Source: an uncultured Acidobacteriota bacterium (GTDB lineage Bacteria > Acidobacteriota > Blastocatellia > RBC074). Taken from it: 64,000 bases of DNA. The stretch spans positions 2,272,001-2,336,000 of the forward strand of contig CAWCKY010000006.1 of NCBI GenBank assembly GCA_963796275.1. The letters are read 5' to 3'. The translations under genes and the position numbers were made by a program. The notes beneath the pieces are model-generated. The model worked only from the letters and a program-made list of their open reading frames with translations. It was not told the DNA's origin and ran no database searches. Below, one piece after another: positions 5,202-64,000 of the stretch; position 1 is the stretch's first letter; the number at the start of each line of letters is the position of its first letter.

Positions 5202-6005
5202 ATGGACTGGGGCCTGCTAGTCATCTGCGTACTGACCTTCATCATTCACTTGATCGGTACGCTCGCATACTCCGTGCGCATTGCGGGAACTCGTACGCGG
5301 CGCATTGCGCTGTCATTGTCGCTCTTCAACATTCTCGTTCTCGTATCGCGGACATCGAATTCATTTCAGGCGCCGTTGCTGGCCAAACGCGTGGAGGACA
5401 ATATTGCCTCGGGAACTGCTACTACAGCTACATCGGACTTTCGCTTGCTTCTGGCGTCTGCGAGTGTCGCCACCGTGGTCGGCGCGCTGTTGATCCCGAC
5501 TTTTCAGCGTCTCTTCGCGAACTACGTCGAAGCCTTCGAACGGCATCGATCCATCCCAAGGATGGCGCTCCGCCTGTTTTCGACGCGGGCCATCGCGGTA
5601 GTGCGAGAAGCCGCAGTCTCCCCCGCGTGGAGCAATGTAGCGAGGGTCGGTCGCGGACCGCACATTCCATGGAGCGTGGCGCTACTGAACGCGGTCAGTA
5701 TGGCGATCTGGACGGTGGGCGTATTCGCTGCGCTGTACGCCGCGTATTTGCACCCGGAGTTGCGTGTGACATCGAGCCAACTGTCCGCTGTTGTGAACGG
5801 GGTTGCGACGATCCTGATGTTCGTCTTTATCGATCCGTACCTGTCGATGGTGACCGACGACGTCGCTGAAGGGCGCGTGAGCGAGGCTTATTTCCGTCGA
5901 TCCATTGTCTGGCTGACGGGAAGCCGATTTGCGGGTACTGTCCTGGCGCAGGCTCTCTTGGTTCCCGCGGCGTCCTTGATTGCCTCGATTGCCGAGCGCT
6001 TGTAG
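5202..6005 (+). CDS. amj: Lipid II flippase, Amj family (DUF2837)
   Basis: LTFIIHLIGTLAYSVRIAG...LFNILVLVSRTSNSFQAP...QLSAVVNGVATILMFVFIDP...SRFAGTVLAQ; 267 aa from ATG 5202 with a GAGGAG RBS. Confidence 0.85.
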   Translation: MDWGLLVICVLTFIIHLIGTLAYSVRIAGTRTRRIALSLSLFNILVLVSRTSNSFQAPLLAKRVEDNIASGTATTATSDFRLLLASASVATVVGALLIPTFQRLFANYVEAFERHRSIPRMALRLFSTRAIAVVREAAVSPAWSNVARVGRGPHIPWSVALLNAVSMAIWTVGVFAALYAAYLHPELRVTSSQLSAVVNGVATILMFVFIDPYLSMVTDDVAEGRVSEAYFRRSIVWLTGSRFAGTVLAQALLVPAASLIASIAERL

Positions 6006-6142
6006 GCGCGTGGTCTATCGAGCCGCGGTCGCCGGCGCGCGGCGCGGTCGGAACAAATTGATTCGAATCCATGGCGCGTGCCGTCCGTTGGCAGAGGCGG
6101 CAAATCATTCGGCGCGCGACGCAAATGATCTGAGGAACGAGA

Positions 6143-6889
6143 ATGGGCAAATGGTTTGAAGATGAATCCTTCTGGAGCGAAATGTATCCTTTCATGTTCC
6201 CTGAGGAACGGTTTCATCTCGCCGAGGAACAAATAGAAAAAATATTAAGTCTTGTCGATTACCGGGGAGGAGCTGTCTTAGATTTATGCTGCGGCCCGGG
6301 GAGGCATTCTCTTGCACTCGCAAAGCGCGGAATTCGGGTCACAGCCGTCGACCGTTCCGAGTTTCTATTGAGTAAGGCAAAGGCAGAGGCGGCAAAATTG
6401 AATCTCGAGATCGAATTTGTCCTGGATGATATGCGGCAATTTGTTCGTAACCATTCCTTCAGCCTGATACTGAATATGTTCACCTCGTTCGGCTATTTCG
6501 ATGATAAAGAAGATGATTTAACCGTGCTCCGGAACGCATATCAAAGTCTGAATGACGGAGGGGCTTTGTTAATAGATGCTTTCGGTAAAGAGCCGCTGGC
6601 AAGAAAGTTTCAGCCCACAAGTTCCACGCAAGGTCCAGATGGAGTGTTGCTTATTGAACGTCACGAAATCTGTGAAGATTGGACCCGTTGCCGGAATGAA
6701 TGGATTCTCGTAAAAGATGAAACAGCGAGGTCGTTCAACTTCCAGATAAATTTATACTCCGGACAGGAGATGAAGGATATTATGCAGAGAGCGGGTTTTG
6801 ATGAAGTAGCAGTGTTCGGAGACCTTGATGGGAGTGAGTATGGGATCAATGCCAATCGTCTAATTGCTATAGGTCGAAAAGCCCATTGA
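6143..6889 (+). CDS. Class I SAM-dependent methyltransferase
   Basis: VLDLCCGPGRH motif I; NMFTSFGYF. Confidence 0.9.
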   Translation: MGKWFEDESFWSEMYPFMFPEERFHLAEEQIEKILSLVDYRGGAVLDLCCGPGRHSLALAKRGIRVTAVDRSEFLLSKAKAEAAKLNLEIEFVLDDMRQFVRNHSFSLILNMFTSFGYFDDKEDDLTVLRNAYQSLNDGGALLIDAFGKEPLARKFQPTSSTQGPDGVLLIERHEICEDWTRCRNEWILVKDETARSFNFQINLYSGQEMKDIMQRAGFDEVAVFGDLDGSEYGINANRLIAIGRKAH

Positions 6890-10540: not shown

Positions 10541-11977
10541 TCATTTCTCCAGGCTGGACGCCGCCTGGAAGCGCGGCGCGATCTCTTCGAGCATCTTTTT
10601 CAACTCAGCCTCCGGCATCCACCGCCCACGCGTCATCACTCCCGCCCTCTTCTCAGTATTCGAAATGTCTTCGAGCGGATTGGCTTCGAGCAAAATAAGG
10701 TCCGCGCGCTTGCCGCGTCCGATTACGCCGGCCTCGCCGAGCGCGTTCAGGAATTCCGCCGGAGTGCGCGTTGCGGCCTCCAGCGCGGCATAGGGCGTCA
10801 ATCCCGCCTCGACCAGGTTCTTCAACTCGCGGTGGAGAGTGAAACCGTAAAGCAGGAACAATTCGGGCGTGTCCGAACCCGCCATGATCTTTCCGCCCGC
10901 GTCGTGAATGCCCTTGACGATTTGATTGCGAATGCGGATGTATTTTTCCCGCCGCTCAAGCGCCGGTGGCGTCGCCCAGAACCGTTGGCGAGCGGCGTGC
11001 CGGGACTTGCGCAATTCGGGCGGGAAGAAGCTGTAATCGGGGCGGGCGCGGATCTCTTCGTCGCTCTGCTCGACAGCGTATGAGAGCTTGAAGAACGTCA
11101 GCGTGGGGCAAGTATAGACGCCAGCCTTCGCGGTCGCGAACGATACTTCGTTGATCTTGCGTTCGTCAACATAATCCAGGCTCTCCCAGTTGGCTTTACG
11201 CCCGACGCCAGAGTCCGAGAGCGAGATCTTTATTGGCGAGTCGTCCTTCAGCACAGCCTCCATATATGAGTCGAGGTGCTCGATCTGCTGACCTGTTTCG
11301 AGCGCGCGCTGAAGGCCGACTCGCAAATCGACGTGCCCGACGACACGGATGCCGATCTCTCTGGCCGTCTCGATCACCGCGTCGTAGACCGGGCGCGAGA
11401 TGGCTATGGTGAGCTTGATGAAATCGTATCCGGCGGCCTTGGCCTGCTTGACCGCCGCGCGCGCTTCTTCGGGCGTCGTTACTACGTAGCCGTTGAACGG
11501 GTCTCCATACGAGCGGCCCGCCAGTTCCGGGCTGGCAACGTACATGGTCGGGCCCAACAGTTCGCCATTCGCCACCTGTGCGCGCATCTTCAAGTGTTCG
11601 GGCGTGCCGATCATCAGGCGGATAGTCGTAACTCCGTTGGCAAGCATGATCTTTAGCTCGTCGCCGGCCAGGCTGTCAGGGAATTTGCCGTCCGAGAACA
11701 GGTGCGTGTGCATGTCGAACAAACCAGGTATCAGAAATTTACCGCGCCCTTCCACGCGCACAGCCCCGGCAGGGATGTTGACCCTGTTCGCCGCGCCGAT
11801 CTCGGCGATTCGCCCATCGCGCACGACCACGGTCTGATCTTTCAACACGCGCTCCCGATCCATCGGTATCACGTTGACGTTGACGAAGGCCGTCATTTGC
11901 TTCCTGGCATCCTGAGCGATCGCAGATGCGATCAAGATCACTACGAGCAAGGTCGCTATTCCATATTTGCTATTCAT
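10541..11977 (-). CDS. Exported amidohydrolase-family protein
   Basis: Signal peptide; PGLFDMHTH, GVTTIR, AGSDT and GKRADLILLEANPLEDI motifs. Confidence 0.9.
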   Translation of the reverse strand: MNSKYGIATLLVVILIASAIAQDARKQMTAFVNVNVIPMDRERVLKDQTVVVRDGRIAEIGAANRVNIPAGAVRVEGRGKFLIPGLFDMHTHLFSDGKFPDSLAGDELKIMLANGVTTIRLMIGTPEHLKMRAQVANGELLGPTMYVASPELAGRSYGDPFNGYVVTTPEEARAAVKQAKAAGYDFIKLTIAISRPVYDAVIETAREIGIRVVGHVDLRVGLQRALETGQQIEHLDSYMEAVLKDDSPIKISLSDSGVGRKANWESLDYVDERKINEVSFATAKAGVYTCPTLTFFKLSYAVEQSDEEIRARPDYSFFPPELRKSRHAARQRFWATPPALERREKYIRIRNQIVKGIHDAGGKIMAGSDTPELFLLYGFTLHRELKNLVEAGLTPYAALEAATRTPAEFLNALGEAGVIGRGKRADLILLEANPLEDISNTEKRAGVMTRGRWMPEAELKKMLEEIAPRFQAASSLEK

Positions 11978-14284: not shown

Positions 14285-14758
14285 TCATTCAATACCGAAT
14301 TCAATTTTCAGGAAAGGTTTGACTCCTTCGCGTCCGGTCAGGTTGAGCCACAACGGTCCGTTCTCTCGACCCGCTTCAAAGCCGAAGGCGAGGAAAGGGC
14401 AGCAGCGGCGTTCCAGCGTGATCCATTCGGCGGTACCTTGAATCATCGCTTCATCAGAAGGTAAGCGGAACGAATATCCGTCAGGCAGTTCGCGCATCTC
14501 CTGCACTGCGGCGCGCAACTTCGCAGTTAGTGCCTGATGCCGCCGCCGCTGCTCCCTGTCGAGCGCATTCAGGTTGCATGCGATCGGCGATTCGCCGGCT
14601 ACGTTATCACTCATCTTCTTCTCCTGTTCTGTCGCTTGAGTAGTTACCGAAATCGCTCTGTCGCAAGCGTCGCATTTAACCACTGAGGGGGGGCCACCGA
14701 GACCGAACCAGACCGATACGGCCGCTAGTATACTGAGAAGTTTTCTTGGGCTGACCAT
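14285..14758 (-). CDS. Cys-motif protein of the type found next to MerR regulators
   Basis: PIACNL...ELPDGYSFR...LERRCCPFLAF; GGAGG RBS at ATG 14758, with a second possible start at MSDNVAG. Confidence 0.75.
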   Translation of the reverse strand: MVSPRKLLSILAAVSVWFGLGGPPSVVKCDACDRAISVTTQATEQEKKMSDNVAGESPIACNLNALDREQRRRHQALTAKLRAAVQEMRELPDGYSFRLPSDEAMIQGTAEWITLERRCCPFLAFGFEAGRENGPLWLNLTGREGVKPFLKIEFGIE

Positions 14759-14813
14759 ACTATCCTCCAATAGTTGTTGGCCTGGCTGCTTGTTGATGGT
14801 GCAGCCTTCCCAT

Positions 14814-15218
14814 TTAAGAGCGCGCGACGCTGTCGGCGATCGCCTTCAAATCGGGGCAGAGCGAATGCCCATCACTGCATTCGCAACTGTCCAGACTCGC
14901 GTCTAATTCGTCGCGCATCATTTGCAGATCGCGAATCTGTTCATCGAGGTGTCGAATCTTGGCTTCGAAGCCGGCACGTACCTCGGCGGCGGTCAATGAC
15001 CGCGTCGCGAGCCGCTGCAGAAGCCGTTCGATTTCCTGGAGTTTGAAACCCCGCTTCTGAGTCCCTTTTATGAAACGGACGACCTTCACGACTTCCGCGG
15101 GATAATCGCGGTATCCTGACGAGAGGCGGCGCGGCTTTTTGAGCAAGCCACGGCGTTCGTAGAAACGAATTGTTTGAACATTGACTCCTGCCTGTGCGGC
15201 GACCTCACCGATACGCAT
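14814..15218 (-). CDS. MerR-family heavy-metal-responsive regulator
   Basis: MRIGEVA..AGVNVQTIRFYERRGLL...GYRDY HTH; C-terminal CECSDGHSLCP metal loop. Confidence 0.92.
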   Translation of the reverse strand: MRIGEVAAQAGVNVQTIRFYERRGLLKKPRRLSSGYRDYPAEVVKVVRFIKGTQKRGFKLQEIERLLQRLATRSLTAAEVRAGFEAKIRHLDEQIRDLQMMRDELDASLDSCECSDGHSLCPDLKAIADSVARS

Positions 15219-15243
15219 CTGCACTCCCTCCGCCAGCGTTAAT

Positions 15244-15275
15244 AGTATGCGCCTTATACCAAAGTATAAGGTCAA
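15244..15275 (-). promoter_or_regulatory. MerR-type long-spacer promoter with dyad operator
   Basis: TTGACC-20 nt-CATACT with the perfect dyad CCTTATAC-N4-GTATAAGG (15252-15271) spanning the spacer. Confidence 0.8.
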
Positions 15276-56755: not shown

Positions 56756-58252
56756 CTAAAACGTGATGCTATAACTGAAACCGGGTTTATTTGCGAAGGC
56801 CAGCACGAACGAGAAGTTGTGCCTCCCGTGCGCATAGTTCACCATAGGATGCACTCGAACGCCGTCATAAATGACCAGCGATGATATCTTCTTGGTAAAG
56901 TACACATTCAGCCCGGCCACTGGCCGCCAGTTGTGCTCATACGTTCCGTAAGCCACGCCAGCATACGGAGCGATGGGCAGCCCTGTTTCACGCTTCAGGT
57001 TTTTACTGAAGGTTGCGTAAAACGACTGACCGTCGGGCGTGCCGATTCGGTCGGAACTCGTGCCGAGAATCAGCGCCGGGCGGCGTTCAGTCTCCGGCAT
57101 AACCAACCAGTTGATCAGCGGACTCACCCTGCCGCTTGCATCCTCAGCGCGTGGATTGAATTCAACCCCCGCAGATAATCTAGGATAAATCCGGTATGTG
57201 AGTGTGGTTCGGACAGTCGCGCGCGGCACGGCTCCCGGAATGACACGCGTCCCGAAAGTCCATTTATCTTCACTTACGTTCACTGCCCCGCTCACGGCGC
57301 GGCCCTCGCCCGGTCAGAGCGGTCAGCTAGGTACGCTGGAAACCTCGAGTGTCGATTTACTTTTGGCCATGGCTATCTGTTCGCGTTTTGCTTCGCGCTC
57401 GCCTTGCGCCACCAGCTTTTCGAGGTGCTTTTTGATCTCTTCCTGCGTCACGACGCTTCTATATATCGCCACTATCTTTCCATCGCGCCCGATGATGGCT
57501 GTGCCGGGCAGCCCGGGTCCGAGGCCGAACTGAGCCATCTGTTCCGTAGTTGCGCCCATCCAGACCGGGAAGTTGACGATTGTCTCCTTGATGAATTGTC
57601 GCACTGCCTTCAGTTCGGCGAATGTGTCAGCCGAAGCGCCGATGACCTGCACTCCGTAAGCAGCGTAACTGTTCTGGATAGCCGCCAGATCGGGCATCTC
57701 CTTCTTGCACGGTCCGCACCACGTCGCCCAGAAGTTCAGCACGACGATCCGCCCGCGGTATGAGCTCAATTTCTGATCCACCCCGAACAGGTCTTTCAAC
57801 ACCAGTTCGGTCTCTTTCCCTATGACGTCAGGAGAAGCCGGTTCTGAAGGCTTGGATAGAACTTTAAGATCGTCCACTTTGACAAAGTTTTGTTTCTTAC
57901 TGACGCGAACCGGGCCGGTGATTTCCACGCGGCTGCCGACATAACTCAGCCAGTTCGGCTCCGGACGTTTGAACTTTCCGTCTTCGAGTTGATAGAACTT
58001 CGTGGCGCCGTCCTGTGCCGCTACCGCCAAAAGTGTCGGGTCGCCATTGGCGATGCACTTGGCGGCTTGCGTCAGGTCTTCTTGCGAGCCGTACGGGACT
58101 TTCCGGCGGTCGGCCTTATTCCAGCAATCTAAACAACACACGATCTGACCTTCGATAAAGCCACTCGCCTTTGCCGCTTGCGCCGAGGCAGGCTGAAAGA
58201 AAAGCGACGATGTCAAAATAGATAACAAGAGTGACAATATTATTCGATTCAC
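56756..58252 (-). CDS. Predicted double-selenocysteine (UxxU) exported protein: signal peptide, CCxxC domain, TlpA thioredoxin, U-P-L-U, beta-barrel-like domain (~498 aa)
   Basis: ORFs 57323..58294 and 56756..57295 are in frame; the junction reads VSSVPS-TGA-P-L-TGA-PGEGRAVSG. WATWCGPC motif; C-terminal FSYSITF; GTG start at 58252 with a GGGGAG RBS. The TlpA part alone is high confidence; the read-through is inferred. Confidence 0.75.
57285..57325 (-). promoter_or_regulatory. Candidate bacterial SECIS element
   Basis: After the second UGA: CCGGGCGAGG-GCCGCGC[CGUGA]GCGGGGC. The loop starts 17 nt after the second and 26 nt after the first UGA, with G at loop position 2; folded by eye. Confidence 0.5.
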
Positions 58253-58355
58253 GGTGGATTCTCCCCGCTGATGCAGAAGCGGACACGCGGACATCAGCCG
58301 ATAGCGTGATGATTGGGGCGATGAATTTGTGTGTGCGTGAGTGAGGGTGTGGCGA

Positions 58356-58715
58356 TTAAATGCGCAGCACGGATACTCTTGGCAGAGGTGGCGAACTTGC
58401 AGGCTGTGGCGGCCCGGCAGTCAGGTTCAAAGTTTGGAAATGATAAAAATCGAAAATCTCCGAGAGCAGCAAGGGCCGGGTGAGGTGGCCCGCCGGTGTT
58501 TTCTGAATTTTCTCCGGCGGTAGATATCTGAGTGTGTCGAGTGAACAACACACGTCTTCCGGCTCGCTCGACGAAACGCTGGGTGCGTCAGAAGCGCAAA
58601 ATGATTCCCCCACATGGTCTGCGCAGTTAGCAATGCAGCCTAGAGACAAGCAGAGCACATTGAGCGCTAGCGCGAAAGAGAGGAATCTTTTTGTAATGTT
58701 ACTCCGACATTTCAT
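58356..58715 (-). CDS. Cys-rich leader protein (DUF2946/CruR-like architecture)
   Basis: Hydrophobic N-terminus, [13 protein letters not shown], and a Pro-rich tail [20 protein letters not shown]; 119 aa. Confidence 0.7.
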
Positions 58716-58722
58716 CGGCGGA

Positions 58723-58751
58723 ATTATAACGAATGTTTCGTCGGCTGCCAA
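58723..58751 (-). promoter_or_regulatory. sigma70 promoter, probably leaderless
   Basis: TTGGCA-17 nt-TATAAT, then 7 nt to the ATG at 58715. Confidence 0.65.
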
Positions 58752-58843
58752 ACGCGCATATCTGATGGTGTCCCAGACGATCGGAAGACGATGCTGCTGC
58801 CATGTTGTGTGTTAACCTGGCAGCGACCGGCCCACACACGATC

Positions 58844-59575
58844 ATGACAAGACTCCGAGACATCCCCATAGGAATCGCGCGATGGATAGAGAGCGCCATG
58901 GTCAGCGTGATCTACATGCCGATCATTTGTGGGGCCGCATTCGTATCTCGCCGGACGGCTTACCGCCTTTTACGGCGCTGGTCGCGCGCACAACTCCGAG
59001 TATTCGGAATCGACCTCGAGGTAGAGTGGGAGGCGCCGCTCGAAGAGGGTCGAGCTTACGTGTTCGCGCACCTCAACCAGACGAGCCTCCTCGAATCGTT
59101 CATCTTCCCTTGCGTGATGCCGGGGCAATTCCGGATGGTGATCAACATCGAGTTCGCGCTGGTTCCATTCATCGGTCAGATGATGGTCGCGCTGGGGGCG
59201 ACCGTGATCGTGCGCCAATGGCCGGCGCAGGGGAAACGCGCGCTTGAGGGAGCCGTTCGGCACCTCAAGCGAGGCCAATGCTTCGGTATCTCGCTCGAAG
59301 GACGACGAAGCCGCGATGGCCGCCTTTCACGGTATCGAAAAGGAGCCGTGGTCATGGCAATCAAGGGTCAAGCAGACCTCGTGCCCTTCTACATTGTAGG
59401 CGCGCGTGAGTCCTGGCCATTTGGTGCCTGGTTACCGCGGCCCGGTCGCGTTCGGGCCGTCTTCATGCAACCTATTCGCGTCGCCGGAGCCACTTACCAG
59501 GACCGTGACGACCTGGTTGAGAGGCTGCGCGACGCTGTCGAAGAGGCACTGGGCGAGCGTCCTCCCATCCGTTGA
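58844..59575 (+). CDS. Lysophospholipid acyltransferase (PlsC family), divergent
   Basis: AHLNQTSLLE (variant of NHxSxxD), SLEGRRSRDG and KGAVVMAI motifs; start uncertain. Confidence 0.8.
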   Translation: MTRLRDIPIGIARWIESAMVSVIYMPIICGAAFVSRRTAYRLLRRWSRAQLRVFGIDLEVEWEAPLEEGRAYVFAHLNQTSLLESFIFPCVMPGQFRMVINIEFALVPFIGQMMVALGATVIVRQWPAQGKRALEGAVRHLKRGQCFGISLEGRRSRDGRLSRYRKGAVVMAIKGQADLVPFYIVGARESWPFGAWLPRPGRVRAVFMQPIRVAGATYQDRDDLVERLRDAVEEALGERPPIR

Positions 59576-59830
59576 TTGAGCAACTACACTCTTGCCTGAT
59601 TAAGGTCAGATTCATCTGCCAATTGTCGTAGCCATTCTCGGCGGCATTTTCATTTCAATGTTTTGAAAATGATTGTATTCCGGGCGCTGAATTACGGTCA
59701 CGCAGAAGTGTGGGCGACAACGCGCGCGATCAAGCGGATGAGAAGGGCTGGGAGCTGACGCCGCTGGCCTGCAGGCAGGTGAGGTGGTCGTTTCAGGGTC
59801 GTCTGTGTAAACTATTAGTCGATCCCTTTT

Positions 59831-61222
59831 ATGACAATTACAGCGCCCGATCATTCCGAGAATCAACTCATCCGCGCCTTGCTGGAAGCCCGCGCGCGTA
59901 CGCTCGAATTAGTCTCTGACCTGAGCGACGAACAGATGATCGGACCGCGCCTCGCCATCGTCAATCCCTTGCGCTGGGAGATCGCGCACGTGGGATGGTT
60001 CCAGGAATATTGGATATTACGCCATCTTCGCCAACTCGAACCGGTTTGGAATGTGGCGGATCAGATGTATGACTCGGCACGCATCGCGCACGATACGCGC
60101 TGGGACCTCTCATTGCCCTCGAAGGCTGAAACAATCGGTTATACGCAGCGGATCCTCGATCGCGTGGTCGAGCAAACGGCATCTAATCCCTCTCGCGATG
60201 TGAACGTATATAATGACGCATACTTTCTACAACTCGCGCTTTTTCACGAAGACATGCACGCTGAGGCGATCATTTATACGAGACAGACGCTTGGCTATAC
60301 TGAGCCTCGCCTGACCCCGGCTCGGGACGTACCACCGGGAGCGCAAGTTGAGGGAGAGCGTGGAAAGATGGAAGCCGCTACATCAACCGCCACTTTATTG
60401 AAGGGGTTGGGAGACGCTGAAGTACCCGGAGGAACATTCCTGCTCGGCAGCGCGCCGGACGACGGTTTTGTGTTTGACAATGAAATGTGGGCGCATCCGG
60501 TCGAGGTGAAGCCGTTTGCGATCTCAAGGACCGCGGTGACGAACGCAGAATTCGCGGCTTTCGTGGCCGACGGCGGCTATCTGAATCGCGTGTTTTGGGA
60601 TGTGGAAGGATGGCGATGGCGCGAGAGCTCCGAGGCCGAACGCCCGATTTATTGGCAACCGATTTCTGGCGGCCGATGGCTGCGCCGGAACTTCGACCAA
60701 TGGGTCGCACTCGAAAACGACCTCCCCGTGTTGCACGTCAATTGGTATGAGGCTTCGGCCTACTGCCGCTGGGCCGGACGTCGCCTGCCGACGGAGCCCG
60801 AATGGGAGATGGCCGCCAGTTCCGAGCCGGCGCCGGGTGGGCAGGGAATTGCCGATCGCAAAAGGCGCTACCCCTGGGGCGACTCGCCACCCACGCCTGT
60901 GCGCGCAAATCTGGACTGGCGCAATATGGGTTGTCTAGTTGCGCATGCCTTGCCAGCGAGCGAAAGCGCTTTCGGCTGCCGCCAGATGATAGGTAATACC
61001 TGGGAGTGGACCGCCACCGCTTTTGAACCTTTTCCCGGCTTCGCCGCCGGCCCCTACAAGGAATATTCCGCGCCATGGTTCGGGGATCATAAAGTATTGC
61101 GCGGAGGATGCTGGGCCACTCGTTCGCGCCTGATTCGCAATAACTATCGTAACTTCTACAAGCCGGACCGTCGCGACGTGTGGGCCGGGTTCCGCACTTG
61201 CGCGCTTTCAGACGAACGATGA
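59831..61222 (+). CDS. senA: Selenoneine synthase SenA (EgtB-like DinB_2 + FGE-sulfatase)
   Basis: NPLRWEIAHVGWFQE, YDS..IAH, FHEDMHAEA, FVFDNE.WAH, RLPTEPEWE and RRDVWAGFRTC motifs; overlaps senB by ATGA. Confidence 0.88.
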   Translation: MTITAPDHSENQLIRALLEARARTLELVSDLSDEQMIGPRLAIVNPLRWEIAHVGWFQEYWILRHLRQLEPVWNVADQMYDSARIAHDTRWDLSLPSKAETIGYTQRILDRVVEQTASNPSRDVNVYNDAYFLQLALFHEDMHAEAIIYTRQTLGYTEPRLTPARDVPPGAQVEGERGKMEAATSTATLLKGLGDAEVPGGTFLLGSAPDDGFVFDNEMWAHPVEVKPFAISRTAVTNAEFAAFVADGGYLNRVFWDVEGWRWRESSEAERPIYWQPISGGRWLRRNFDQWVALENDLPVLHVNWYEASAYCRWAGRRLPTEPEWEMAASSEPAPGGQGIADRKRRYPWGDSPPTPVRANLDWRNMGCLVAHALPASESAFGCRQMIGNTWEWTATAFEPFPGFAAGPYKEYSAPWFGDHKVLRGGCWATRSRLIRNNYRNFYKPDRRDVWAGFRTCALSDER

Positions 61223-62229
61223 ATATCCTCATCACCACCCCGGCGCCGCCTCGATCCAGATACGGCAACCGTGTAACGGCGCTGCGATGGGCGCGCATCC
61301 TCAAGGGACTTGGACACCATGTCGCCGTCTCCCAGGTCTACGAAGATGGCGATTACGATCTGCTCATCGCGCTACATGCGCGCCACGGCTATTTTTCGAT
61401 CGACCGATTCCGCAGCCTGCATCCGGACAAACCGCTTGTCGTCACGCTCTCCGGGACAGACCTCTACCAGGACCTCAAGCAGAGCAAGCTTGCGCGCAAA
61501 TCGCTTGACCTTGCCACGCGCATTGTCGTGCTTCAACCGAAGGCTTTTGACGATTTGCCGTCGCGACATCACGCGAAAACGCGGGTCATCTATCAGTCGG
61601 CTCGGGGGGGTCGAGCGGTTCAGCCAGCTATATCGGACAACAACCGGCATCCAGGCAATCGGGCCGGGTCACGCAATTTCAATGTTTGCGTGATCGGCCA
61701 CCTGCGACCGGTGAAAGACCCGTTTCGGGCTGCGCTGGCGGCGCGTCGACTGCCGTCTTCATCAAGAATTCGCGTGTTACACATTGGCGGGGCGATGACC
61801 GAGGAGATGGCGGCGAAAGCGCGCGCGGAGATGAAGGTCAACCCACGTTACCTGTGGCTTGGTGAACAACCGCGATGGCGCGCACGCCGCATCCTGACGC
61901 GCAGCCATTTGTGCGTTCTCTCGTCTCGGCTGGAAGGCGGCGCCAATGTGCTCTCGGAATCGATAGTAGCTTCGGTGCCCGTGGTCGCAACGCAAATTCC
62001 CGGCACTGTCGGGATATTAGGCGCGGACTACCCTGGCTATTTCACCGTAGGCGATACCCGTGAATTGAGGGGGCTTTTGCTGCGCGCGGAGGCAGAACCG
62101 GATTTTTTAAATGTTCTCAAGTCAAAGTGCGAGGATTGTGCCGAACTTTTCGAGCCGGCTCGTGAACAGAGGACCTGGAAGAATTTGCTCGCCGAACTAA
62201 GAGTAAGGAATTCGTCAACCAAGCTTTAG
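61219..62229 (+). CDS. senB: Selenosugar synthase SenB (TIGR04348-type glycosyltransferase)
   Basis: ITTPAPPRSRYGNRVTALRWARIL, LIALHAR, LSGTDLY, VIYQS, GHLRPVKDP and SRLEGGANVLSE motifs. Confidence 0.9.
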   Translation: MNILITTPAPPRSRYGNRVTALRWARILKGLGHHVAVSQVYEDGDYDLLIALHARHGYFSIDRFRSLHPDKPLVVTLSGTDLYQDLKQSKLARKSLDLATRIVVLQPKAFDDLPSRHHAKTRVIYQSARGGRAVQPAISDNNRHPGNRAGSRNFNVCVIGHLRPVKDPFRAALAARRLPSSSRIRVLHIGGAMTEEMAAKARAEMKVNPRYLWLGEQPRWRARRILTRSHLCVLSSRLEGGANVLSESIVASVPVVATQIPGTVGILGADYPGYFTVGDTRELRGLLLRAEAEPDFLNVLKSKCEDCAELFEPAREQRTWKNLLAELRVRNSSTKL

Positions 62230-62732: not shown

Positions 62733-64000
62733 ATGTCGCTGACAGAATACAAGCCGGGAGCAAGATTCCCGGGCGTCATCGGGCGGACGCCCGACGTGTC
62801 GGAGCCAGCATGGCCGGAGCCCACCAGGCCGAAGGAAGGTGCGCCAAACGTGCTTTTCATCGTTCTCGATGATACGGGATATGGGCACCTCGGGTGCTAC
62901 GGCAGCCCGATCTCCACGCCGAACATCGACGCGCTGGCTAAGGGGGGCTTGCTCTACACTAACATGCACACGACCGCCCTCTGTTCGCCGTCCCGCTCCT
63001 GCATAATCACAGGTCGCAATCATCATACGAATCACCTGGCCTGTCTGACGAACGGCTCCACGGGATATCCAGGATCGGACGGTTACATCCCGTTCGAGAA
63101 CGGGTTCATCTCGGAGATATTAAAGGAACGCGGCTACAGCTCTTATTGCGTCGGGAAATGGCACCTCGCGCCGGAAGAGACGATGACGGCGGCGGGGCCA
63201 TACGACCGATGGCCGCTGGGACGCGGGTTCGAGCGTTATTACGGTTTCATGGGAGGCGACACAAATCAATACTATCCCGAGCTCATCCGCGACAATTCGC
63301 AGATCGAACCGGAGACGACCCCCGAACAGGGCTATCACCTGACGCCTGACCTGGTCGAGAAAGCGAAGGCGATGATCGCTGACACCAAGCAGGTCGCGCC
63401 AAACAAGCCGTTCTTCCTATACTTCGCAACGGGCGCGATGCATTCACCGCATCACGTGCCTAAGGAATGGGCCGACAAATACAAGGGCAAGTTCGACGCG
63501 GGCTGGGAGGCGTATCGCAAGCAGGTCTTCGAGAACCAGAAGAAACTCGGACTCGCGCCCCCCAATGCCGAATTGTCCCGGCCAGATCCGGACGTGCAGG
63601 ACTGGAGTAAGCTTCCGTCGGATGAGCGAAGGCTCTACGCCAGGATGATGGAGGTCTTCGCGGGGTTTCTGGAGCACACCGACCGTTACATCGGCAAGCT
63701 CATTCAGTTTCTGAAAGACATCGGTGAGTACGACAACACATTGATCATGCTGATCTCGGATAACGGTTCGAGCGCGGAAGGCGGACCGACGGGCTCAATC
63801 AACGAGTGCCGTTTCTTCAACAACGTGCCCGATACAGTGGAGGACGGGCTGAAGCACATCGACGACATCGGCGGGCCGAAAGTGTTCAATCACTTTCCAT
63901 GGGAAAGGCGATCTTCCAGTCACGACGCTGAATCGGCTGGCGCAGGGTGGCGCGATGCTTGTCGGAGCCGACACCGGCGCGCCTGTTACGCCAGAGTACG
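62733..64000 (+). pseudogene. Arylsulfatase with an apparent large internal deletion and frameshift near 63902; runs off the window
   Basis: Hand translation: PNVLFIVLDDTGYG...ALCSPSRSCIITGRNHH...GKWHL...SDNGSSAEGG...FNHFPW, then sulfatase-like sequence continues only in another frame as GKGDLPVTT...VGADTGAPVTPEY. Confidence 0.7.

Follow-up and report, generated by a model that had tools for sequence, protein, structure and literature searches.

A putative double-selenocysteine thioredoxin-barrel protein of Acidobacteriota and its weak association with selenoneine genes

Does the leftward gene within positions 56756..62229 of a 64,000-nucleotide stretch of DNA from an uncultured Acidobacteriota bacterium (contig CAWCKY010000006.1; the whole stretch is hereafter the window) carry two UGA codons that are translated as selenocysteine (Sec, U), and does its proximity to the selenoneine genes senA and senB bear on its function? 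A preliminary description had placed within these 5.5 kb a leftward unit, consisting of a leader and the gene for a protein with a UxxU motif, and a rightward series of a plsC-like gene, senA and senB. All of these parts were present, and the layout was confirmed by coordinates and by NCBIfam and Pfam scores. Comparison with homologous loci indicated that both UGAs are almost certainly read as Sec, with one downstream Sec insertion sequence (SECIS), in a protein combining a thioredoxin domain, UxxU and an outer-membrane barrel. The pairing with senA and senB (senAB) is best read as a local arrangement arising from a weak association and not as part of one selenoneine pathway. The selenoprotein gene contains the following features.

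57326..58252, minus strand: N-terminal part of the selenoprotein gene, start GTG at 58252 (PF00578/PF08534).
57314..57325, minus strand: UxxU motif, S-U-P-L-U-P-G-E-G-R, with two putative Sec codons (TGA at 57325-57323 and 57316-57314).
57285..57303, minus strand: SECIS-type hairpin, GCC-G-CGC[CGUGA]GCG-G-GGC (covariation and RNAalifold).
56756..57295, minus strand: predicted 12-stranded outer-membrane beta-barrel with a C-terminal aromatic residue (AlphaFold2; predicted local distance difference test 87, predicted template modelling score (pTM) 0.82).

Under translation table 11 the long gene stops at TGA 57325-57323; the second TGA follows 9 bases on and the frame is then open to TAG 56758-56756. 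GTDB species genomes were scanned for relatives of the C-terminal domain, yielding 471 stretches, and the best 80 (L numbers; 78 records by title, nearly all labelled Acidobacteriota) were analysed with flanks of up to 10 kb per locus, 1.1 Mb in total, using library models from NCBIfam 20.0 (curated cut-offs) and Pfam. Loci with at least 5.5 kb upstream and 3 kb downstream of the gene (44 of the 80) were classed as well covered. The motif P-S-U/C-P-L/T-U-P-G-E-G was found in frame ahead of the barrel in all 80 loci. TGA occupied both sites in 79, the remaining locus (i.e. L033) having TGC then TGA (CxxU), such that the census of 160 codons comprised 159 TGA, one TGC and no TAA or TAG, whereas these 80 genes end in a mixture of true stops (32 TGA, 26 TAA and 22 TAG). 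Synonymous variation, including AGY/TCN serine switches, affected the codons preceding, separating and directly following the UGAs, while the flanking residues were invariant, indicating selection on the protein across the UGAs. In 76 loci the thioredoxin CxxC shared the frame of the first UGA, three of the others being cut by contig ends and one missed by the pattern. Cys forms of the site were also observed, namely CxxC in P0002 and P0003, both metagenomic homologues, and, in distant homologues, PTCAGCAGEAR preceded by a signal peptide or YHS domains and followed by the barrel. A full-length all-Cys thioredoxin-barrel fusion was not found among proteins of 281-896 amino acids, which gave only three matches. 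The gene thus has the hallmarks of a bacterial selenoprotein, a conserved in-frame UGA with coding sequence on both sides and Cys at the same position in homologues.

Synonymous freedom collapsed over approximately 15 nt 3' of the UGAs, at the hairpin. This element has a 6-bp stem with one mismatch and a 5-nt loop with an invariant GU at positions 2-3, the loop starting 17 nt after the second UGA and 26 nt after the first. Pairing was maintained in 99.8% of alignment cells as compared to 18-66% in slid controls, and at one pair 21 of 72 distinct rows had U-A in place of C-G, a double change that even entailed an Ala to Thr replacement. This covariation was reached by none of 500 shuffles, and RNAalifold recovered the same helix unprompted. 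Published criteria for bacterial SECIS elements are a loop of 3-9 nt with G in the first two loop positions, 16-37 nt from the UGA, and a stem of 4-16 bp at -7.5 kcal/mol or below (PMC13188914); the hairpin, which alone gave -10 kcal/mol, falls within these limits for both UGAs.

The predicted protein consists, in order, of a signal peptide, a Cys-rich beta domain (CCxxCW...C), a TlpA/ResA-like thioredoxin (WCGPC), a long helix, a flexible linker, UxxU and the barrel. ResA and TlpA were the best NCBIfam models for the thioredoxin part, yet scored below cut-offs; its predicted fold matched 3gl3 with a Z of 20.0 (root-mean-square deviation (rmsd) 1.8, 138 residues). No Pfam or NCBIfam model covered the barrel (E<=0.01), PF13557 was not matched, and databases annotate this part as a separate hypothetical protein of 179 amino acids. 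Its last residue was F in 78 of the 80 loci and W in two. The best structural match was the COG4313 channel 4rl8 (Z 15.5, rmsd 3.2, 169 residues), tied with KdgM (14.7), and the autotransporter barrels NalP (Z 14.5) and EstA (Z 14.4) lay within about 1 of it. Alignment begins at the UxxU segment, a position occupied by lumen plugs or linkers in the matched proteins. With 12-stranded plugged barrels (i.e. the COG4313 channel 4rl8, FapF 5o65, KdgM and autotransporter translocators) the protein has in common its predicted fold and an N-terminal segment that aligns with lumen segments, but it differs in its low identity to these structural matches (8-14% at Z 14.5-15.5 for the COG4313 channel, KdgM, NalP and FapF) and in having neither a sequence-level match nor PF13557. 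A profile search of PDB sequences with the selenoprotein gave thioredoxin-region matches only, among the best 60 of 85. Two claims of the preliminary description, that the UGAs encode Sec and that the product is an envelope protein, are thus sustained, the former by the codon census, Cys forms and SECIS.

Envelope or UxxU selenoproteins already catalogued include Prx-like UxxU proteins (PF00578), UGC-containing TlpA and the metal-binding NF041115 (UxxU), and further catalogued barrels are the GSU2204 family (NF041027) and the TonB-dependent receptor FCYXU (NF049945) (PMC13188914, Table 1). With these the present protein shares two Sec residues in UxxU, a thioredoxin fold or outer-membrane barrel, and suggested metal or redox roles; unlike them, it has an all-Cys thioredoxin active site and carries UxxU in a linker before a small barrel. 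The whole protein passed none of the NCBIfam models for catalogued selenoproteins (WAxxUGC_long, NF041054, gave 44.8 bits against a cut-off of 300), and no entry of a 119-entry selenoprotein table (PMC13188914) has the thioredoxin-UxxU-barrel architecture. No description of the barrel protein was found in a search of the open literature, including PMC10891094, PMC5389517, PMC1794560 and PMC12013277, subscription journals lying outside the search. The UxxU thioredoxin-barrel selenoprotein with its leader is thus uncatalogued. The family is large (2,075 matched database proteins, the closest named ones from Blastocatellia, in addition to the 471 GTDB stretches) and has been hidden because annotation splits the protein into a thioredoxin and the 179-residue hypothetical protein. 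With it, the selenoproteome of abundant soil bacteria would gain a common outer-membrane protein with two Sec residues, and the selenoprotein with its leader is the more valuable object here, the selenium neighbourhood mattering less as a local association. Records titled Heliobacteriaceae, Heliomicrobium, Clostridia or Actinomycetota (L005, L016, L019, L026, L027, L033 and L055) nest inside the acidobacterial tree of the selenoprotein, reflecting either mislabelled bins or transfer. Among distant all-Cys homologues, P0186, P0204, P0219, P0221 and P0235 have YHS-type domains instead of thioredoxin before the CxxC and barrel. A plasmid search gave no match.

Upstream of the selenoprotein gene, the remainder of the leftward unit comprises three elements.

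58723..58751, minus strand: sigma-70-like promoter candidate, TTGGCA-17-TATAAT (11/12 consensus matches).
58356..58715, minus strand: CutF-like Cys-rich leader of 119 amino acids ending LRI-TAA (cluster of 30 loci plus the window).
58253..58355, minus strand: 103-nt spacer in which a predicted stem includes the ribosome-binding site for the selenoprotein gene (fold prediction).

The promoter match alone is weak, with four sites in the region against 3.4 expected; of the 36 loci in which a leader was found, 18, including the window, had a -10-like hexamer 5-8 nt ahead of its start. As the promoter ends 7 nt ahead of the leader ATG, the transcript is probably leaderless. The leader has a hydrophobic N-terminus, CxxxC and a Pro-rich tail, the LRI end being present in 31/31 cluster members and CxxxC in most, and gave no Pfam, NCBIfam or DUF2946 match. 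In 17 of 29 loci, pairing (p>0.5) was predicted between a Shine-Dalgarno-like 4-mer and the 20 nt immediately following the leader stop, as compared to 68 of 580 shuffles (12%). In the window this 4-mer was also paired (0.68), although its partner lay outside this 20-nt segment (0.01 within it), and the single-sequence fold of the spacer had a z of -0.29. According to PMC9973294, CutF-like leaders have a signal-like N-terminus, CxxxC, a Pro-rich C-terminus, a short spacer with a Shine-Dalgarno-masking stem and metal genes nearby. The present leader resembles CutF/CruR (DUF2946) in its signal-like N-terminus, CxxxC and Pro-rich tail, in a short spacer with a predicted masking stem in many loci and in nearby metal genes, but differs in the absence of a DUF2946 match, its invariant LRI end, an apparently leaderless mRNA and putative control of a selenoprotein. 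By analogy, it is a probable metal-sensing translational switch. A second Cys-rich leader-like family, most members ending CC-x-F-L/R-I-stop and having no Pfam or NCBIfam match, was present in 15 loci (L008 1847-2359, L024-L031, L035, L042, L044, L051, L052, L059, L066 and L076).

Genes for CusA/CzcA, copper ATPases, CDF or MerR proteins, or ars genes, were found near the selenoprotein gene in 23 of the 80 loci and in 14 of the 44 well-covered ones. This count followed removal of five of 28 loci with metal matches: L041 had a multidrug-type RND, L002 and L005 an adaptor subunit only, below the metal cut-off, and in L060 and L066 the match was confined to an HMA-like barrel gene. The selenoprotein gene is repeatedly accompanied, in L008 (239-1573), L060, L066 and L079, by a gene with a metal-binding-like N-terminal region and a PF13557 (COG4313-type) barrel. 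A metal link is also suggested by the fusion of distant Cys homologues to YHS domains rather than to thioredoxin. UGA-plus-hairpin selenoprotein candidates of known type lie near the gene in L009 (DUF3179) and L043 (ArsM-like).

On balance the leftward unit is more probably than otherwise a two-gene operon for a metal-linked double selenoprotein of Acidobacteriota that is loosely clustered with senAB and does not form one pathway with them. From the metal neighbours and CutF-like leader features, the mechanism we prefer is that of an outer-membrane protein under metal regulation, whose plug is a diselenol and which carries its own thioredoxin. The barrel would reside in the outer membrane, its lumen plugged by the UxxU-PGEGR segment; the two selenols could bind or gate soft metal ions (of the Cu, Ag, Hg, Cd or As type), the fused thioredoxin could keep them reduced, and the CutF-like leader may switch translation by metal availability. 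Metal handling, gating and leader control of the selenoprotein are inferred. The senAB genes would constitute a selenoneine module of their own, brought next to the selenoprotein gene in some lineages by a shared requirement for selenophosphate and a shared role in redox or metal stress.

Several observations weigh against this picture. The metal-gene count of 23 loci applies to these 80 loci, without a genome-wide control, the other 57 show none, and no metal gene lies next to the unit in the window. In the full-length model the relative domain orientation is undefined (pTM 0.43) and the linker is of low confidence, such that electron transfer from thioredoxin to UxxU is conjectural and the thioredoxin could be either periplasmic or at the surface. 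When a longer piece of the window was folded as a single sequence, the hairpin was not the best structure (z -0.02 to 0.68), and the double change affects only one of its six pairs and may reflect a single inherited event. Within flanks of up to 10 kb, selA, selB, selD, selU and tRNA-Sec were found in none of the 80 loci (E. coli queries, no acidobacterial control). Similarly, tblastn with E. coli queries (E<0.01) gave no match to SelA, SelB, SelD or SelU in the 64-kb window, again with no acidobacterial positive control, and there was no tRNA or Rfam match in the window.

The strongest competing explanation, though an unlikely one, is that the protein is a general envelope thiol/selenol oxidoreductase on the outer membrane, possibly autotransporter-like with an external thioredoxin, which repairs or reduces disulfides and for which metal is secondary. 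Such an activity would suit the ResA/TlpA/DsbE-like thioredoxin domain, the closeness of NalP and EstA to the best barrel match and the fact that most catalogued selenoproteins are redox enzymes (PMC13188914). It leaves unexplained the metal neighbours, the CutF-like leader and those homologues in which a signal peptide or YHS domains, and no thioredoxin, precede the CxxC and barrel.

The rightward genes raise the second part of the question, i.e. whether the selenoprotein belongs with selenoneine synthesis.

58802/58844-59575, plus strand: plsC-like gene, acyltransferase fold (PF01553, E 4.6e-13).
59831..61222, plus strand: senA, selenoneine synthase (NF041186, 497.7 bits; cut-off 420).
61219..62229, plus strand: senB, selenosugar synthase, Cys form (TIGR04348, 387.8; cut-off 300).

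SenA scored 334 on the EgtB model, under its cut-off of 360, and SenB has the motifs GNRVTA, LRPVK and EGGANV. The sen cluster for selenoneine is senA-senB-senC, senC being a selD homologue (bioRxiv 10.1101/2022.04.13.486033). The present pair resembles that cluster in that both proteins pass NCBIfam equivalog cut-offs and the genes overlap by 4 nt, but differs in that senC/selD is neither in the window nor beside senAB in L004 and would have to lie elsewhere; a tblastn search with E. coli SelD gave no match in the window or the 80 loci. The barrel protein and SenB of the window are listed on one contig of 2,934,898 bases, so their adjacency is unlikely to stem from joined contigs.

Near the selenoprotein gene, senA was found in three of the 80 loci (i.e. 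L001, L004 and L036) and in one of the 44 well-covered loci. SenA of L004 passed the cut-off, while the L001 and L036 copies are cut by contig ends and have SenA as best model; senA-like matches in L002 and L044 were dropped, having 25-28% identity in the FGE-sulfatase region only. Arrangements varied, being divergent with the plsC-like gene between in the window, convergent in L001 and L004, and tandem on the same strand in L036, where senA lies 72 nt downstream. The thioredoxin part of L036, the sole independent senA-linked locus, is split by a frameshift (5590-6530; assembly error or decay). In a quick tree of the loci, the window and L001-L004 formed a five-member clade (SH-like approximate likelihood ratio test 97) and L036 belonged to a separate lineage; the other two members of the clade of the window had no senA within available flanks (L003 ends about 190 nt downstream). 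The senA-linked label required three changes on this tree, at least two of them forced, and 26 of 500 shuffles were as low. Assuming one senA per genome, at most 0.12-0.22 copies are expected by chance in 1.1 Mb, such that the probability of at least two is about 0.006-0.02; for L036, which alone is independent of the clade, the probability of at least one is 0.11-0.20. The association between the selenoprotein and senA is probably real but minor.

Functional coupling to selenoneine synthesis or selenium supply, with the protein capturing or reducing selenium species at the outer membrane or recycling oxidised selenoneine, is less probable still in our estimation than the oxidoreductase role. 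In its favour, senA adjoins the gene in three loci and the window, representing at least two lineages, at odds of chance as low as those given for two copies; the link survives rearrangement within the clade of the window, and L036 has the genes 72 nt apart on one strand. Against this, 77 of the 80 loci and 43 of the 44 well-covered ones are without senA, two of the three linked loci are closely related to the window, from which the test arose, the independent one has a frameshifted thioredoxin part, neither senC/selD nor any other sel gene lies nearby, and the commonest neighbours are metal genes. These counts also bear on what the preliminary description had drawn from the neighbourhood. A conserved selenoprotein-sen cluster was not found, and the co-location of senAB is a weak argument for Sec, given senA in three loci and no sel gene nearby; the comparison of neighbourhoods, which was to have revealed sen or sel linkage, largely showed none for the sel genes and in most genomes, although not entirely so for senA. 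The suggested role in acquiring or reducing selenium gained no specific support. The suggestion that the protein detoxifies soft metals alongside selenoneine retains plausibility as regards metals, from the 23 loci and the CutF-like leader, but not as regards a function shared with selenoneine, senA being near in only three loci.

Least probable by far is the annotated alternative that the UGAs are stops and that thioredoxin and barrel are two genes, the latter starting from GTG 57295: the 120 best database matches are indeed all pieces of 136-183 amino acids (mostly 179) and GAGGG lies 5 nt ahead of this GTG, but the codon is GTC or GTT in 4 of 81 sequences, no signal-like stretch is present in the barrel piece by itself (median hydropathy 0.91 vs 3.09), and neither the absence of TAA and TAG from 160 sites, nor the Cys variants, nor the strict frame conservation and SECIS would be expected.

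In L001 (minus strand, 2311-2313) and L004 (minus strand, 11004-11006) senB has an in-frame TGA where SenB of the window has Cys, and both proteins pass TIGR04348 when read through (400.1 and 386.3). In both, a hairpin with a GGA loop starts 17 nt past the TGA (z -2.52 and -1.58); its counterpart in the Cys form of the window is weak. Between L001 and L004, the 95 codons after the TGA showed 27 synonymous and 15 non-synonymous changes, and the 75 codons upstream 18 and 2, respectively. A third truncated SenB protein, P0329 (five members), ends at the same site. The residue is Cys in 104 of 118 full-length homologues and L, F, T or S in 14, indicating that the Cys is not essential for catalysis. 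A Sec-containing SenB in L001 and L004 is, from these sequences, somewhat favoured, a nonsense mutation shared by the two loci being the possible alternative. SenB is not among the entries of the 119-entry table (PMC13188914) and the literature search found no earlier description of a UGA-containing senB, which, if read as Sec, would tie selenoprotein and selenometabolite routes together. A more ambitious and doubtful proposal is a selenium-gated outer-membrane metal channel, in which a small barrel encloses a diselenol plug, that is reset by its fused thioredoxin, switched by a stalling leader and placed in selenium islands with Sec-SenB in some lineages; if true, selenoneine synthesis would depend on Sec decoding, and selenoneine and channel would both be governed by selenium supply.

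Other candidate selenoproteins lay in the flanks. Known types with an in-frame UGA and a hairpin after it were a DUF3179 protein (UxxC) at L009 16659 and an ArsM-like protein (UxxG) at L043 5548-5550 (minus strand). Two related LSPT-U-P-x-C proteins, in L048 (15509) and L070 (just upstream of 7603, minus strand), have a UGA and then hairpins, the UGA-bearing domain having no family match. Type III sulfide:quinone reductase-like genes, below the cut-off for the selenoprotein subtype, occur upstream of senA in L004 (13721-14359) and beside DsrE-like and ArsM-like genes in L043 (6681-7958).

The plsC-like gene is probably specific to the window and unrelated to the selenoprotein. Its product scores under the TIGR00530 cut-off and has the atypical motif NQxSxxE, the usual motif being NHxSxxD. 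Its GC content is 0.61 as compared to 0.52-0.59 in its neighbours, and it had a close counterpart in none of the best 80 loci, the only match being partial at 30%. Elsewhere in the window, a MerR-family regulator with a small Cys-containing downstream open reading frame lies 42 kb from the selenoprotein locus (14285-15275, minus strand). An arylsulfatase gene occupies 62733-64000 (plus strand), in which sulfatase-like sequence seems to be lost near 63905, possibly through a frameshift or junction.

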